From Acidobacteriota bacterium (GTDB lineage Bacteria; Acidobacteriota; UBA890; WLXD01), in the NCBI GenBank assembly GCA_965248695.1, contig CBDFKD010000002.1, forward strand, positions 32,001 through 96,000: 64,000 nt of DNA, in the 5' to 3' direction. The position numbers and the translations under genes were made by a program. The notes below the pieces were generated by a model that was given only the letters and a program-made list of their open reading frames with translations, was not told the origin of the DNA and did not search any database. Shown here one piece after another: positions 26,158 through 57,905 of this stretch (its first letter is position 1; each line of letters begins with the position of its first letter).

Positions 26158-26235
26158 TGGCGGGGCCGACGGGATTTGAACCCGCGATCTCCGGCTTGAC
26201 AGGCCGGCGTGTTAACCAGGCTACACCACGGCCCC
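26158..26235 (-). tRNA. tRNA-Asp(GTC)
   Basis: GGGGCCG acceptor stem, anticodon loop CTGTCAA, GGTTCAAATCC, encoded CCA. Confidence 0.97.
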
Positions 26236-26278
26236 GCCCGAAAAGCGGTCTGCTGCGCCGCTGGCGACGGCAAAAAAA

Positions 26279-26354
26279 TGGTGGGCGGTACCGGACTCGA
26301 ACCAGTGGCCCCCTGCTTGTAAGGCAGGTGCTCTCCCAGCTGAGCTAACCGCCC
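26279..26354 (-). tRNA. tRNA-Val(TAC)
   Basis: GGGCGGT acceptor stem, anticodon loop CTTACAA, GGTTCGAGTCC, encoded CCA. Confidence 0.97.
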
Positions 26355-34801: not shown

Positions 34802-34874
34802 TGGCGGTGGAGGGACTTGAACCCCCGACTCGGCGGATATGAGCCGCCTGCTCTGCCGACTGAGCTACACCGCC
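34802..34874 (-). tRNA. tRNA with CAT anticodon, most likely elongator tRNA-Met; CCA not encoded
   Basis: GGCGGTG acceptor with paired G1-C72, anticodon loop CTCATAT, GGTTCAAGTCC. Confidence 0.92.
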
Positions 34875-35752: not shown

Positions 35753-37021
35753 CTAGCCGGAGAACGGATCGCCATCGGCACGGTCCTCGTCGTACCAGAT
35801 CTGCCCTTCGGAAGCGGCAACCACCACTGCCGCTGACGCGTCACCGGTGATGTTGGTCGCCGTGCGCAGCATGTCGACGATCCGGTCAACTCCCAGAATC
35901 AGAGCGATACCCTCGAGTGGCAGGCCGAGCTGCTCCAGGACCATCGCCAGGGTGATCAGGCCGACGCCGGGCACGCCGGCAGCGCCGATAGAGGCGATCG
36001 TTGCCATGAGCACGATGGTCAACTGACCGCCGATCCCGAGCTCGATGCCGTAGACCTGGGCGATGAACACCGTCGCCACGCCCTGGTACAGAGCGGTGCC
36101 GTCCATGTTGACGGTAGCGCCGAGCGGCAGGACGAATGCCGCGACCTGCTCCGACACGCCGAGCTTGGTGACCGTGCGATCCATCGTCACCGGCAGCGTG
36201 GCGCTGCTCGAGGAGGTGGAGAACGCCACCAGCTGCGCCGGCCGGATGGCGGCAAAGAAGCGTCGCACGGATACCTTCCCGAGCCACCTCACGACGGTGC
36301 CGTAGACCAGCGTCATGTGTAGCAACAGCCCGACGACGACGCACAGCGTGTACAGCGCCAGCACGCGCAGGATATCCAGCCCGAACTGGCCGACCGCCGC
36401 GGCAATGAGCGCCAACACCCCGATCGGCGCCATGCGCATCACGATGTGGACAATCTGGATCATCGCCTCGCTGACGCCGTCGAAGAACACCAAGACCGAC
36501 TCGCGGTGCGACTTCTTGGGAATGAGCGTCAGCGCCACTCCGAACAGGATGGCAAAGAAGATGATCTGCAACATGTTGCCGGTCGCCAGTGCCTCGATCG
36601 GGTTGGTGGGCACGATCGCCAGGAGCGTATCCACTACGCTGGGGCGATCGCGCATGCGCTCGGCGTCGGCCTCGCTTCCGAAGCTGGCGAGCAACTGCTC
36701 CTGGGCCGCGGAGTCGATGCCGGCGCCCGGTTGCACCGCGTTCGCTAGCAGCAGGCCGATGGTGATGGCGATGGCCGTCGTGCACAGGTAGTACGCCATC
36801 GTCTTGCCGCCGATACGTCCGAGCTTCTTGGGATCCCCGACGGTGGCCGTGCCGACCAGCAGCGACGAGAAGACCAGCGGCACTACGACCAGCCGTATCA
36901 ACCTCAGGAACAGGTCGCCAATCGGCCGCAGCATCGTGGCACCGTCGGCAAAGACCGCGCCGACGAGGATGCCGACGACCATGCCGATCGCGATCTGGGT
37001 GGGCAGCGACAGCTTTCGCAT
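35753..37021 (-). CDS. Dicarboxylate/amino acid:cation symporter (GltP/DAACS family)
   Basis: AFSTSSSSATLP, GATVNMDGT, GVDRIVDMLRT. Confidence 0.95.
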   Translation of the reverse strand: MRKLSLPTQIAIGMVVGILVGAVFADGATMLRPIGDLFLRLIRLVVVPLVFSSLLVGTATVGDPKKLGRIGGKTMAYYLCTTAIAITIGLLLANAVQPGAGIDSAAQEQLLASFGSEADAERMRDRPSVVDTLLAIVPTNPIEALATGNMLQIIFFAILFGVALTLIPKKSHRESVLVFFDGVSEAMIQIVHIVMRMAPIGVLALIAAAVGQFGLDILRVLALYTLCVVVGLLLHMTLVYGTVVRWLGKVSVRRFFAAIRPAQLVAFSTSSSSATLPVTMDRTVTKLGVSEQVAAFVLPLGATVNMDGTALYQGVATVFIAQVYGIELGIGGQLTIVLMATIASIGAAGVPGVGLITLAMVLEQLGLPLEGIALILGVDRIVDMLRTATNITGDASAAVVVAASEGQIWYDEDRADGDPFSG

Positions 37022-37120
37022 TCAGGCGTCCCGGGTCGCAAAGAAGGTCATCAGCCGATGCTCGATGGGTCAGAGGCGGCGCCAGCTTACCAGTGCAAAC
37101 GCGCGGCGTTGATCGGCACG

Positions 37121-37155
37121 AAAAAAGCTCCGGGAGACGCTTGTCTCCCGGAGCT
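37121..37155 (-). terminator. Intrinsic terminator after carD
   Basis: AGCTCCGGGAGAC-loop-GTCTCCCGGAGCT stem followed by a U tract on the minus strand. Confidence 0.85.
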
Positions 37156-37176
37156 GAATCCCGCCGGCGTCGTGGG

Positions 37177-37701
37177 TCAGGACGCCTTGAGATCGCGCGC
37201 CGCATTGCGCGCCTCGATGCAATCGTCCAGGGCCGTTTCGACGTCCCCTTGCACGATCTCCTCGGTGCGGTTCTGCACCATGGCGATCTCGGAGATGATC
37301 AGACCCTTCGCCTTGTCGTACATGCGCTTCTCCCGATAGGAAAGCGCCTTGCGCTGCGACAGGTGTTGCAGGTTCTTGAGAACGTCAGCCATCTCGAAAA
37401 GATGCCCTGAGCGCATCTTCTCGGCGTTTTCCTTGTAGCGACCCTTCCAGTTGCTGTGGGTCTCGAAGTTGTGATCACGCAGATGCTTGAACAGCCTTCG
37501 GATCTGCGTCTTGCCGAAGATCTTGCGGAGTCCGACCGCCTTGGAGTTGCCGACCGGAACCATCACCGTGGTTTCGTTCGCGAATAGCCGGAGGTGGTAG
37601 AAGTCCTGGTCGAGACCGGCGATTTGGGTCTGCTTGACTTCCTCTATGATCCCCACGCCGTGGTTCGGATAGACGACATAGTCGCCGACTTCAAAGCGCA
37701 A
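37177..37701 (-). CDS. carD: CarD family transcriptional regulator
   Basis: TTG start with AGGAG RBS; FEVGDYVVYPNHGVG, VMVPV...GLR, NWKGRY, LSYREKRM. Confidence 0.93.
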   Translation of the reverse strand: MRFEVGDYVVYPNHGVGIIEEVKQTQIAGLDQDFYHLRLFANETTVMVPVGNSKAVGLRKIFGKTQIRRLFKHLRDHNFETHSNWKGRYKENAEKMRSGHLFEMADVLKNLQHLSQRKALSYREKRMYDKAKGLIISEIAMVQNRTEEIVQGDVETALDDCIEARNAARDLKAS

Positions 37702-37756
37702 ATGGATCTCCTGATGTTTACGAGCGGGCTGCTGCAGAACGTGCGGGAAGTTCCTT

Positions 37757-37785
37757 AGTATATTCGAAAATGAGGCAAAATTCAA
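37757..37785 (-). promoter_or_regulatory. Sigma70-type promoter of carD
   Basis: TTGAAT-N17-TATACT on the minus strand. Confidence 0.7.
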
Positions 37786-37866
37786 CGCCCGGATCAGCCC
37801 GTAGAGCCCACCGCTACGGGCGGTTTCAGGATTCTCCGGCCCTGATGTGCAGCCTGCGGCATCCGG

Positions 37867-37894
37867 TTGACAAGCGCGGCCCGGCGACCATAAT
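37867..37894 (+). promoter_or_regulatory. Sigma70-type promoter of the putative ncRNA
   Basis: TTGACA-N16-CATAAT, with no credible downstream CDS on the + strand. Confidence 0.75.
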
Positions 37895-37896
37895 CA

Positions 37897-38188
37897 GGGC
37901 GGTTCGGGCGATCCTCATGGCCGCGCGGCGCGCGCCTGCGATCTCCGGCAACAACAATCAGGTAATACCGGCTCGCAACATGGCTCGCCCGAAAGGGCGC
38001 CAGTAACACCGGTGTGCGGCGCAGCCCCGACCGCATATCGGGCGGGAGGCTTACTGGTCGGCTTCCGAAGCCATGCGCGCTCCGGTGTGAACGTGGCCGA
38101 AAGGGGCAGACCTCGTTCCGCGCCTGGTTGGCCGGTGCCGCTTGCCGCATCGCGAGGAGGCTGTTCGCGAGGATCGCCCGTTCCGTCT
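37897..38188 (+). ncRNA. Putative ~290-nt structured non-coding RNA of unknown family
   Basis: Own promoter; ends pair (CGGGCGATCCTC/GAGGATCGCCCG); about 10 nested helices, GAAA loops and a perfect four-way junction. Confidence 0.75.
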
Positions 38189-40412
38189 ACTGGAGGGCGT
38201 CGCGGCTCGCCGGTGGGGTACCAGCGACCCGTGAGTCGGCCGCCGCGCGCAGGCTGGTCGCGGCCGCGACGAGCTCGACCGTAGCCGTCCGCATCGATGT
38301 CGCCAGATCGTCGAGCTCGACCGCCAGGGCAGCACCGTCGCCATCCCGCAGCGCGCGCTGAACTCCGGGCAACAACTCGGACGCATAGAGGTCGCCGTCG
38401 GACGGCGCGTAGACCAGGTTGTTGAACCATGGGCGCGCCGCGAGCCCACCGGCCCGCGTGAAGGCTCGTTCGACCCGCAGCAAATGGTCGTTGACCGGTT
38501 GCAGCCCCGCCGCTATCCGACCCACAGAATTCTTTTGCAGTGTCAGACGGGTATGCGCCTCGAGCTCACCGGCGGCGGCCGCCAGACGACCGAGGGCACG
38601 CCATACAAGCTCGGTGCCAGCGGTACGGGCGTTGGCCCCCGGACCGGCGAGAGCGGCATCGACGTTGCTCAGCGCCGTAGCCAGCTCTGCGGCCTGATCA
38701 CGGTAATCCAGCGGCAGCACGTCCGCGCTTGCCAGGCGCCAGCCGAGCACCGCCGCCAGCGCCGCTACGGCGCGGTGCTGCCGGTAGCCGGGATCGCCGA
38801 ATCGCTCCACGAAGGTGTTGGTGTCATACGCCGAGTGGTACACGCCTGAGCTTCCCGAAAACCCGAAGCTCATGGTCGGCACACCGAGCACAGCAAAGAA
38901 GGGTGCGTCATCAGAGCCGCCAGCCGGGAGCGATACGCGCGGCTCACCGCTGGGAAGCATGGCCGCCCGCCGCCGCCAGGAGTCGTAGACGGTGGTGGTC
39001 GGCAACGTCGGGTCGGCGACCACCTTGGATGTATCGCGGATGAGGGTGCGCAGCGAAGGCGACGCCGTGGCGGAGAAATAGGGGCCACCTACGACACCGT
39101 CGAGATTGATATAGGCGACGGCGGAGTCCCGTAGCTGATCCGCGTACGCCTCCGTCCACTCGGTGGAACCGATCAACCCCCACTCCTCTGCGTCCCACGC
39201 AGCGAACAGAATGCTACGCCGGGGCGGCCAGCCGGCGGCGCTCAGCTCCGCCAGTACGCGCGCCGACTCCAGTAGAGCCACCGTGCCCGAGAGGTTGTCC
39301 ATCGCCCCGGCCGTCCAGGAGTCGTAGTGCGCCCCGAGGATTACCCACTCGTCCGGACGCTCCCGCCCGCGAAGCGTCCCGACAACGTTGCGGATGCGTC
39401 GCATCGGAGCGTCATCGAGCTCGACCCACACACGCGCCCTGACGCCGCCGAGGCCGACGTGATAGCGAAACGGGAGGGCTCCCTGCCAACCTGAGGGCGC
39501 TTCGGCGCCTTCCAGGTGTTGCAGAAGCTCGGCTGCCGAGGCGTAGCTCAACGCGACGACGGGGATCGAGGGCAAGGGCGTTGCGGGAACTTGCTGAGCG
39601 GCCGCGGCAGCGCCGACGGTCGCTGGCAGTCCGGGCGTGTTGGGGTCGCCCGGTGGTCCCGTACGTACGGAGCCGCGCTGCACCCCGGTCCACGGCCGGT
39701 ACGGACCACGCGGATAGACGTCGCCGCGGTAGTAGCCGTCGTCGAACGGATCCGAGTACAGGAGCACCGCCGCCGCACCGGCGGCTTCGGCGTTGCGTAC
39801 CTTCGCACCGCGAAACACATTGCCGTATCGCATCACGACGATCTTGCCGGTGACATCCGCGTTCAGTGCTCGGAGAGCGGTGAAATCCGCCGTCGTCCCA
39901 TAGTTGGCGTAGACCACGCCGGCTTCCACGTTGCCGGCTGCCGAGTACGCCGCCACTGCCGGATACCGACTGGCGTCACTGTCGGGGTCGTCGGTCAGTG
40001 GTTCCTCATCGAGGGTCAGCGTCAGCGGAGCCGGCGTCAGGCGGTCGACGCGCGCAGCGCGCGCGTGCGGCAATAGGACGTTGTACTCATGAACCTTGAC
40101 GTCGAGGCCCCAGCTCGTCATCCGATCGGCGATCTTGCCGGCGGCGCGCGCCGCTGCCGGTGTGCCGGCCACCCGCGCCTCGCCCCCAAGCTGCTGCGCC
40201 AGAGCGCGCAATCGGTCAGCATCGGGCGTCGTCGCGAGGCGTTGCTCGCGCTCGATGGCGGCCCCCCAAGGAGCCTGGAACCCGCGTGGGCCGGACACCA
40301 GCGGTACCTCGCCCCGTCCGGGCAACGCCGCCAGCAGCATCATCGCAGCCAGGAACCCGCGCAACGCGGCACGTGGCAAACTGGAGATGGTCCGTCGTTC
40401 GGTCGACAACAT
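38187..40412 (-). CDS. M28 peptidase (glutamate carboxypeptidase II-like; PA and TfR-dimerisation domains)
   Basis: VYANYG, RYG..FRGAK, VQRGS, GAHYDSW, DAEEWGLIGS, YINLD, YHSAYD. Confidence 0.92.
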   Translation of the reverse strand: MLSTERRTISSLPRAALRGFLAAMMLLAALPGRGEVPLVSGPRGFQAPWGAAIEREQRLATTPDADRLRALAQQLGGEARVAGTPAAARAAGKIADRMTSWGLDVKVHEYNVLLPHARAARVDRLTPAPLTLTLDEEPLTDDPDSDASRYPAVAAYSAAGNVEAGVVYANYGTTADFTALRALNADVTGKIVVMRYGNVFRGAKVRNAEAAGAAAVLLYSDPFDDGYYRGDVYPRGPYRPWTGVQRGSVRTGPPGDPNTPGLPATVGAAAAAQQVPATPLPSIPVVALSYASAAELLQHLEGAEAPSGWQGALPFRYHVGLGGVRARVWVELDDAPMRRIRNVVGTLRGRERPDEWVILGAHYDSWTAGAMDNLSGTVALLESARVLAELSAAGWPPRRSILFAAWDAEEWGLIGSTEWTEAYADQLRDSAVAYINLDGVVGGPYFSATASPSLRTLIRDTSKVVADPTLPTTTVYDSWRRRAAMLPSGEPRVSLPAGGSDDAPFFAVLGVPTMSFGFSGSSGVYHSAYDTNTFVERFGDPGYRQHRAVAALAAVLGWRLASADVLPLDYRDQAAELATALSNVDAALAGPGANARTAGTELVWRALGRLAAAAGELEAHTRLTLQKNSVGRIAAGLQPVNDHLLRVERAFTRAGGLAARPWFNNLVYAPSDGDLYASELLPGVQRALRDGDGAALAVELDDLATSMRTATVELVAAATSLRAAADSRVAGTPPASRDALQ

Positions 40413-57821: not shown

Positions 57822-57905
57822 GCCGAGGTGGCGGAATTGGCAGACGCGCCGGACTCAAAATCCGGTGGGCTTACGCTCGTGAGGGTTCGAGTCCCTCCCT
57901 CGGTA
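57822..57905 (+). tRNA. tRNA-Leu(CAA); CCA not encoded
   Basis: GCCGAGG acceptor, CCGGA-CTCAAAA-TCCGG anticodon arm, long variable arm, GGTTCGAGTCC. Confidence 0.97.

Follow-up and report, generated by a model that had tools for sequence, protein, structure and literature searches.

A conserved structured RNA encoded next to carD, and its relatives of variable size, in an Acidobacteriota class without 6S RNA matches

6S RNA, a rod of about 180-200 nt with a large conserved central bubble, binds the sigma-70 holoenzyme and serves as the template of short product RNAs. It is close to universal in bacteria, and some lineages are without it. In actinobacteria that lack 6S RNA, a polymerase-binding RNA of about 300 nt, Ms1, was predicted by its structure before its function was known (PMC4191392, PMC9130861). 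By its published description, Ms1 forms a long hairpin whose central bubble is conserved and which has two short hairpins near its ends, the bubble and its flanks being most conserved (PMC4191392), and in actinobacteria it shows a conserved linkage to a HAD hydrolase gene (PMC9130861). In Corynebacterium, a lineage without 6S and Ms1, the ~500-nt RNA CoRP is reported to bind both the core and the holoenzyme forms of the polymerase (PMC11077062). On the basis of RIP-seq, the authors of that study proposed that each species has one abundant polymerase-binding RNA, which is often missed by searches (PMC11077062).

The RNA described here is encoded in a 64,000-nt stretch of DNA, the whole of which was analysed and is called the window, from an uncultured, soil-type bacterium of the Acidobacteriota (genome of 5.9 Mb in 2 contigs, 96% complete). 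We refer to the gene at 37899-38192 (+) as the window RNA; its features and neighbours are given in Table 1. It is flanked by two minus-strand genes, one for a CarD-family protein and one for an M28-family peptidase. The sequence-only reading of this DNA had proposed a promoter that fires into a region with no credible coding sequence, and both parts of the proposal were borne out. The promoter matched 11 of 12 consensus positions in a consensus scan, and no credible CDS was found in the region of the window RNA: each + strand ORF there begins before the promoter or continues, as antisense, into the peptidase gene. The scan returned two promoter-like sites in 37000-39000, as compared to 0.3 expected from shuffled sequence. 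The second of them, TTGAAT-17-TATACT at 37785-37757 (-), fits carD; the carD promoter and that of the window RNA would stand back to back, with 82 bp between them, and fire divergently. We also observed that the longest carD reading frame starts at 37785, while in the frame from the TTG at 37701 the Pfam domain starts with residue 3. The shorter gene is likely, because of this Pfam start and the upstream GGAG, and because the promoter-like site at 37785-37757 would fall inside the longer frame.

At the 3' end of the window RNA, a terminator scan found no intrinsic terminator. After its closing stem the window RNA has only a degenerate T-rich tail; runs of at least 5 T are present in 5 of 10 homologues, one of them in the window's genus. 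The tail overlaps the peptidase stop codon by a few bases only.

Table 1. Coordinates, in the window, of the window RNA gene, its predicted structural elements and the flanking genes
Feature	Position	Strand	Remarks
CarD-family gene	37177-37701	-	Pfam domains CarD_C and CarD_TRCF_RID; likely start TTG, with GGAG six bases upstream
Sigma-70-type promoter	37867-37894	+	-35 TTGACA (37867-72), 16-nt spacer, -10 CATAAT (37889-94)
ncRNA gene	37899-38192	+	~294 nt; 5' end inferred from the -10 box, 3' end from the closing stem and T-rich tail
Closing stem P1, 5' strand	37905-37916	+	Pairs with 38169-38180; 12 bp, perfect
P2, 5' strand	37917-37922	+	Pairs with 38159-38164; contains the invariant GGCC; basal module; G-U pairs fit + strand only
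Middle rod, 5' strand	37923-37954	+	Pairs with 38131-38154; ends in a 5-nt unpaired AACAA bulge (37950-54)
Helix below the three-way junction	37955-37963	+	Pairs with 38122-38130, 9 bp; two-sided changes in 7 of 9 pairs, still paired
Main apical arm	37965-38088	+	Stems 37965-71/38082-88, 37974-76/38077-79 and 37979-85/38069-75, up to the four-way junction
Four-way-junction hairpin CGCCC-GAAA-GGGCG	37986-37999	+	88% of cells paired; 2 pairs changed on both sides
Most conserved apical element, 58 nt	38000-38057	+	7-bp stem 38000-06/38051-57 around an 11-bp hairpin and a loop
Four-way-junction hairpin UCGG-CUU-CCGA	38058-38068	+	In three genera; absent in a fourth, whose strand has another pairing partner
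Side arm GAACG...CGUUC of the three-way junction	38089-38118	+	Conserved GGGG(C) inside; helix 12, 88% of cells paired
Basal module, 3' strand	38155-38168	+	GGAGGC core 38156-38161 invariant in the family (columns of alignment A1)
Closing stem P1, 3' strand	38169-38180	+	Followed by the degenerate T-rich tail, 38181-38192
M28-family peptidase gene	38187-40412	-	Pfam; convergent with the window RNA; stop codon 38187-89

The + strand from 37895 to 38190 is predicted to fold with a minimum free energy (MFE) of -158.1 kcal/mol, as compared to -136.7 +/- 5.1 for dinucleotide shuffles (z = -4.2), and none of 200 shuffles folded as well. The fold of the minus strand is weaker (-147.1, z = -3.4), and conserved G-U pairs fit the + strand only, in agreement with the earlier remark that such pairs favour this strand. 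The MFE structure contains 105 pairs. Nine helices of a nested fold that had been drawn by hand were checked; all nine are fully complementary, and seven are also present in the MFE structure. So are two elements that had been described with them, the side arm and a four-way junction (37979-38075) with no unpaired nucleotides. The other two helices, 37938-42/38149-53 and 37946-51/38142-47, form the G+C-rich middle rod, for which the MFE structure has the pairings 37924-28/38150-54 and 37945-49/38131-35 instead. Both are candidates, and the pairing register of the modelled rod is ambiguous. The GGGGC of the side arm might make a loop-loop contact with the C-rich hairpin loop at about 38022-27, and the one variant seen is consistent with such a contact.

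We examined conservation in the window's family, which comprises 11 genomes of five genera and is an Acidobacteriota lineage of metagenome-assembled genomes. A BLAST search of 40 relatives recovered the whole stretch of the RNA at 87-93% identity in all four genomes of the genus and parts of it in the other genera, a total of 9 of the 10 family genomes besides the window's own; the sole family genome without the window RNA is 71% complete. Ten sequences from the five genera, extending from the -35 box to the 3' tail, were aligned by sequence (alignment A1) and used to build covariance model R1. This model found one full-length copy per genome, of 286-299 nt and 201-295 bits, in 10 of the 11 family genomes. 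The window RNA is single-copy in its own genome, where the other BLAST matches are at most 39 nt long, with E values of at least 0.03. At all ten family loci the same block of genes is found: M28 peptidase, RNA, carD and a sodium:dicarboxylate symporter. TTGAC of the -35 box is kept in every homologue and ATAAT of the -10 box in 8 of 10.

Base-pairing was assessed on the sequence-only alignment. RNAalifold predicted 66 pairs, 22 of which carry, in at least one sequence, a two-sided change that keeps the pairing. For the MFE structure of the window RNA, tested on ten related sequences of one family from one of which it was itself derived, 82.6% of cells were paired, as compared to 34-43% when partners were slid by 1-3 columns; 31 pairs were changed on both sides (11-20 with slid partners), and the covariation score was 0.212 (at most 0.096). 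In 500 column shuffles, the observed percentage of paired cells, the covariation score and the numbers of pairs and of cells with two-sided changes were never reached; 91 of the 500 reached the observed number of further pair types. The idea of a functional RNA had been made to depend on a transcript, on homologues and on covariation, and the last two speak for it: homologues exist in 10 of the 11 family genomes, and the two-sided changes exceed those with slid partners and in shuffles. Across the five genera, these comparisons demonstrate conservation of sequence, position and predicted base-pairing.

The support was uneven along the molecule. It was best for the closing stem, the helix 37955-63/38122-30, the hairpin at 37986-99, the stem 38000-06/38051-57 and the 11-bp hairpin inside the latter. 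In the closing stem, 10 of 12 pairs are invariant in A1, one changes from G-C to A-U in 5 of the 10 sequences, and one is U-G, C-G or U-A. After the GGAGGC core of the basal module, G.UC (38163-38166) shows no variation among the ten ~290-nt RNAs. Alignment among genera is poor for the middle rod and for the arm 37965-38088. Helices 3 and 4 of the rod had 73% and 64% of cells paired, with a loop whose size and sequence differ among genera, and helix 6 of the arm had 67% of cells paired on the sequence-only alignment, being formed in each genus by different sequences. The apical element 38000-38057 is the sole part that BLAST detects in the most distant genus. Its 7-bp stem (helix 8) had 100% of cells paired, including two-sided changes in 4 pairs, and encloses the 11-bp hairpin (38009-41; helix 9, 91.5% paired) and a small GC-GGGAG-GC loop (38042-50).

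The window RNA was compared with catalogued RNAs. At gathering scores, Rfam 15 identified four tRNAs in the window and gave no match at the window RNA; the tRNA genes are at 26161-26354 (two, adjacent, minus strand), 34802-34874 and 57822-57905. Only three matches, all at chance level and none of them to RF00013, were obtained with 37700-38300 at E values up to 10. The searches, at gathering score and at E up to 10, gave only chance-level matches for a ~180-nt relative and a ~460-nt paralogue described below. The 6S model RF00013 (gathering score 46.4 bits) had no match in the window, and among 55 candidates scored in the whole genome there were 0 matches. RNase P RNA (290 bits) and tmRNA (167 bits) are found elsewhere in the genome, and the model for small bacterial SRP RNA has two matches above its gathering score on contig 2 (2283459-2283558 and 2816376-2816463). 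The two SRP RNA matches score 69.9 and 52.8 bits, and one may be a second copy or a look-alike. The sequence-only reading had held that this RNA is not RNase P RNA, SRP RNA, tmRNA or tRNA, and that view is confirmed, as those RNAs lie elsewhere in the genome and the window RNA has no Rfam 15 match. Its novelty, which a 6S, SRP or Ms1 match would have removed, likewise stands.

Searches with DNA patterns were also made. A first pattern, for the 5' stem, had at least 120 chance matches across phyla, none of which fitted the profile, and a second had 8 loci, which were 7 family genomes already known and 1 chance match. A metagenome scan with a pattern for the apical element gave 9 loci, all by chance and coding-like by eye, with the RNA in none of them. 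The sequencing runs listed as containing the stretch were 3 DNA runs from one study, and RNA runs were none of those listed. A MITE or REP-type repeat was rejected, because the RNA is single-copy and is syntenic at 10 of 10 loci. Judging from these genomes, the window RNA appears to be a single-copy, branched, highly structured and, by prediction, independently transcribed gene with a near-consensus sigma-70 promoter. The promoter, the fold and the homologues support the original description of a stand-alone, structured + strand RNA gene with a promoter of its own, and we regard it as highly probable that the window RNA is a genuine new structured ncRNA gene.

We then considered how the window RNA compares with described RNA systems. 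Like 6S RNA, it is stand-alone, strongly promoted and stable-looking, with its two ends in a long closing stem, and its ~180-nt relatives show 6S-like length, rod shape and a conserved internal loop. Unlike the 6S rod, the window RNA has 294 nt with three-way and four-way junctions, and its sequence conservation lies in the basal stem and not around a bubble. Ms1 is similar in its size of about 300 nt and its occurrence in a lineage without 6S, and it is a precedent for a lineage-specific RNA that binds polymerase, in its case the core enzyme. However, the window RNA has no conserved bubble, as judged for architecture against the published description and for sequence only through the Rfam scan; it belongs to the Acidobacteriota, and its neighbours are M28 peptidase and CarD genes rather than a HAD hydrolase gene. 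CoRP is likewise large and genus-restricted and escapes bioinformatic searches, and the ~460-nt paralogue is similar to it in size. The difference, in a comparison made by description only, is that CoRP comes from one actinobacterial genus and its binding to polymerase has been shown, whereas binding by the window RNA is only a guess.

The Y RNAs and bacterial Yrl RNAs that occur with Ro60, a protein usually encoded nearby, are paralogues with a conserved basal stem, formed by their 5' and 3' ends, and variable apices, and the paralogues of the superfamily described below likewise combine a conserved basal stem with variable apical parts. No match to the Ro60/TROVE domain (PF05731) was found in the genome, while control genomes were positive, and none of the Y or Yrl families of Rfam matched the window RNA; a Y/Yrl-like system is therefore unlikely. 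A sponge of the Csr/Rsm type is also unlikely, because CsrA (PF02599) has no match in the genome and the window RNA contains 3 GGA motifs, as compared to 5.5 +/- 2.0 in shuffles. A kink-turn in the basal loop was considered as well. It fits the ~180-nt forms on paper, but by eye its key A is a C in the window's family.

The family of the window RNA and a sister family of 15 genomes make up a class of 26 genomes in all. Model R1 also matched ~180-nt RNAs in 10 of the 15 sister-family genomes and, in a single genome of the window's family, a second RNA, and it aligned the window RNA end to end with the ~180-nt members. The latter have a TTGACA -35 box after an A-rich stretch and a U-run; they have the closing stem, the 5' strand and the GGAGGC..UCG 3' strand in common with the window RNA, and interiors unrelated to it. 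They are of two types, each predicted to fold as a rod whose internal-loop region, about 50 nt in from both ends, is invariant. By its end sequences, the window RNA could be either the orthologue of 'type a' of the sister family or a duplicate of 'type b'. A second model, R2, was built from the ~180-nt RNAs of the sister family and matched all 15 genomes of that family, so that R1 and R2 together placed the superfamily in 25 of the 26 class genomes. Outside the class, R2 had no match in a sample of 151 genomes of the phylum, searched with stricter filters.

Two further size classes came to light with R2. One is a form of ~105 nt with the same promoter and basal module, found in sister-family genomes (L216:1501-1605, L217:1501-1605 and L213:1501-1605) and equipped with a U-run and a TTGACA promoter of its own. 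At all three loci examined it lies 8 to about 70 nt upstream, on the same strand, of a homoserine dehydrogenase-type gene, whose identity was confirmed by Pfam in one locus (L216). Instead of being a free sRNA, this form might serve as a leader or attenuator. The other is a ~460-nt paralogue in the window's own genome, on contig 2 at about 204145-204612 (-) (L218:1197-1660), both ends of which were matched by R2. It has a fold z of -5.8, keeps the same basal module, the U-run and the loop motif, and adjoins the same gene as a ~180-nt form in another genus of the window's family. Its apex has many small hairpins with GNRA-like loops and 4x4 purine loops, and it contains 26 GGA motifs, as compared to 17 +/- 3 in shuffles. 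Two other family genomes contain likely orthologues, which measure about 460-510 nt.

The ~180-, ~105- and ~460-nt relatives keep the GGAGGC core as well, and a variable ..UCG stretch comes after it. A regular expression for this 3' strand hit 37 sites in the genome, only 2 of which, the window RNA and the ~460-nt paralogue, had the full context. The traits by which members of the superfamily were recognized are TTGAC in the -35 box, an end stem of at least 10 bp, a 5' GGCC helix and GGAGGC..UCG on the 3' side, and the window RNA has them all. A U-run is typical of most members, and a good one is absent from the window RNA. These comparisons establish, from sequence and predicted structure, that the window RNA belongs to an uncatalogued superfamily that is confined, as far as we searched, to one Acidobacteriota class. 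The superfamily consists of a fixed basal module, made of the paired ends and an internal loop, with a variable apex that brings the total to about 105, 180, 290 or 460 nt. Pfam scans of neighbours found no neighbouring gene common to the paralogues. Beside the ~180-nt RNA of two sister-family genomes, we noted a redoxin/AhpC-TSA-type gene (L176:1140-1484, L178:1092-1436) that in both is interrupted by an in-frame TGA at the first cysteine of the active-site motif (…FWTPT-TGA-xxC…); the TGA is probably a selenocysteine codon.

The distribution of 6S RNA bears on what the superfamily might do. RF00013 scored above its gathering score in none of the 26 class genomes, as compared to 11 of 15 genomes from other families of the phylum. 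This complementary distribution amounts to one evolutionary event, because the 26 class genomes are kin and 4 of the 15 other genomes are also without RF00013. The phylum's own 6S RNAs carry conserved bubble motifs that are absent from the new RNAs, which argues that the latter are not simply a diverged 6S RNA narrowly missed by the model. With the place of 6S vacant and Ms1 and CoRP as precedents, binding to RNA polymerase is the guess that attracts most, and it suits the ~180-nt rods best. The case is weaker for the window RNA itself, because the molecule is branched, most of its loop is closed and its conservation lies elsewhere. Where 6S RNA has its bubble, the ~180-nt relatives and the ~460-nt paralogue retain a conserved internal loop; the window RNA shows no more than a 5x0 bulge and a 4x3 loop there, both differing from genus to genus, and its most conserved parts are the basal module and the apical element 38000-38057, not a bubble. 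By analogy with 6S, Ms1 and CoRP, RNA polymerase may be the partner of the window RNA; we put this forward as the leading guess, and a tentative one.

The sequence-only reading had suggested a 6S/Ms1-like polymerase ligand. The missing 6S RNA and the rod-shaped ~180-nt relatives keep that suggestion in the lead, while the want of a conserved central bubble in the window RNA tells against it. The argument that had been drawn from the adjacency of carD, which encodes an RNA polymerase-binding factor, was not supported. carD adjoins the RNA at all 10 loci of the window's family only; it was found beside none of the sister-family loci that were fetched and screened, whose Pfam-scanned neighbours are unrelated. 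The adjacency carries little weight, because it is restricted to the one family in which the entire block of genes is syntenic. Should this genome have an RNA that stands in for 6S, the ~460-nt paralogue, which keeps the loop motif, would be the better candidate. The ~105-nt member is too short for a 6S-like role; since it is so short and lies upstream of a homoserine dehydrogenase-type gene, the basal module may serve another protein or RNA stability.

In a second reading, the window RNA would be a stable RNP scaffold whose basal module binds a protein other than polymerase, such as a chaperone, a nuclease or another RNA-binding protein, and the apices of the paralogues serve different tasks. 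The 105-, 180-, 290- and 460-nt members have only the basal module in common, the apical domains are unrelated to each other, and the window RNA has no conserved bubble, all of which this reading accommodates. However, it has no candidate protein, Ro60/TROVE and CsrA not having been found in the genome; the paralogues have no neighbouring gene in common, and the missing 6S RNA is left unexplained. We consider it only slightly less probable than the guess of polymerase, and just as tentative.

Less probable by a wide measure is a base-pairing regulatory RNA or sponge, in which the GGGAG loop, the GGAGGC strand and the C-rich loop would pair with mRNAs, sRNAs or the anti-Shine-Dalgarno sequence of 16S rRNA. 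Two invariant GGAGG-type motifs, one invariant C-rich loop and a strong independent promoter are what such an RNA might have, but with its 294 nt, some 100 base pairs and branches the molecule does not resemble typical base-pairing sRNAs, and the GGA count given above shows no enrichment. A cis-acting element, either a 3' end or antisense RNA for the convergent peptidase gene or an element that regulates carD from its divergent promoter, 82 bp off, is very improbable: the RNA tail does overlap the peptidase stop codon, and the gene block is conserved at 10 of 10 family loci, but the overlap is only a few bases, the window RNA has its own conserved promoter firing away from carD, and the sister-family relatives lie in unrelated contexts. 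Finally, a domesticated or decaying non-autonomous mobile element, whose terminal inverted repeats would form the 'closing stem', would account for conserved inverted ends and variable interiors, but is scarcely credible for a single-copy sequence with only 2 superfamily members in 5.9 Mb. Its position is fixed and syntenic in all five genera, its G-U pairs and two-sided changes agree with an RNA from one strand only, and promoter and U-run are on one strand.

Returning to the leading guess of a polymerase-bound RNA, the window RNA would act in trans as a stable protein-bound RNA. The basal module would be a protein handle shared by the superfamily, and the conserved 58-nt apical element would give the window RNA its own role. 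RNA polymerase would be the most likely partner, the superfamily would replace 6S RNA in this lineage, and the RNA would sequester or store polymerase, as core or holoenzyme, under slow growth. A bolder version is that a modular RNA system replaced 6S in the class, with one basal handle, one protein (polymerase or another) and interchangeable apices of ~40-400 nt, giving 2-3 paralogous RNPs per cell. We think this version less likely than not. If true, it would mean a new class of bacterial RNAs that associate with polymerase or form other RNPs and whose architecture differs from that of 6S, Ms1 and CoRP; in the window's family, their apices would have grown into ornate 290-nt and 460-nt RNAs.

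By analogy with the described systems, the family of the window RNA may stand in for the missing 6S RNA that controls RNA polymerase. It offers a concrete, conserved candidate family for a polymerase-binding RNA in a class-level lineage of uncultured Acidobacteriota, and the covariance models and defined ends make the polymerase-binding idea directly testable. Whatever the partner may be, the RNAs of 290 and about 460 nt are large structured bacterial RNAs new to Rfam 15, and they provide an example of an apical domain expanding on a fixed basal module.
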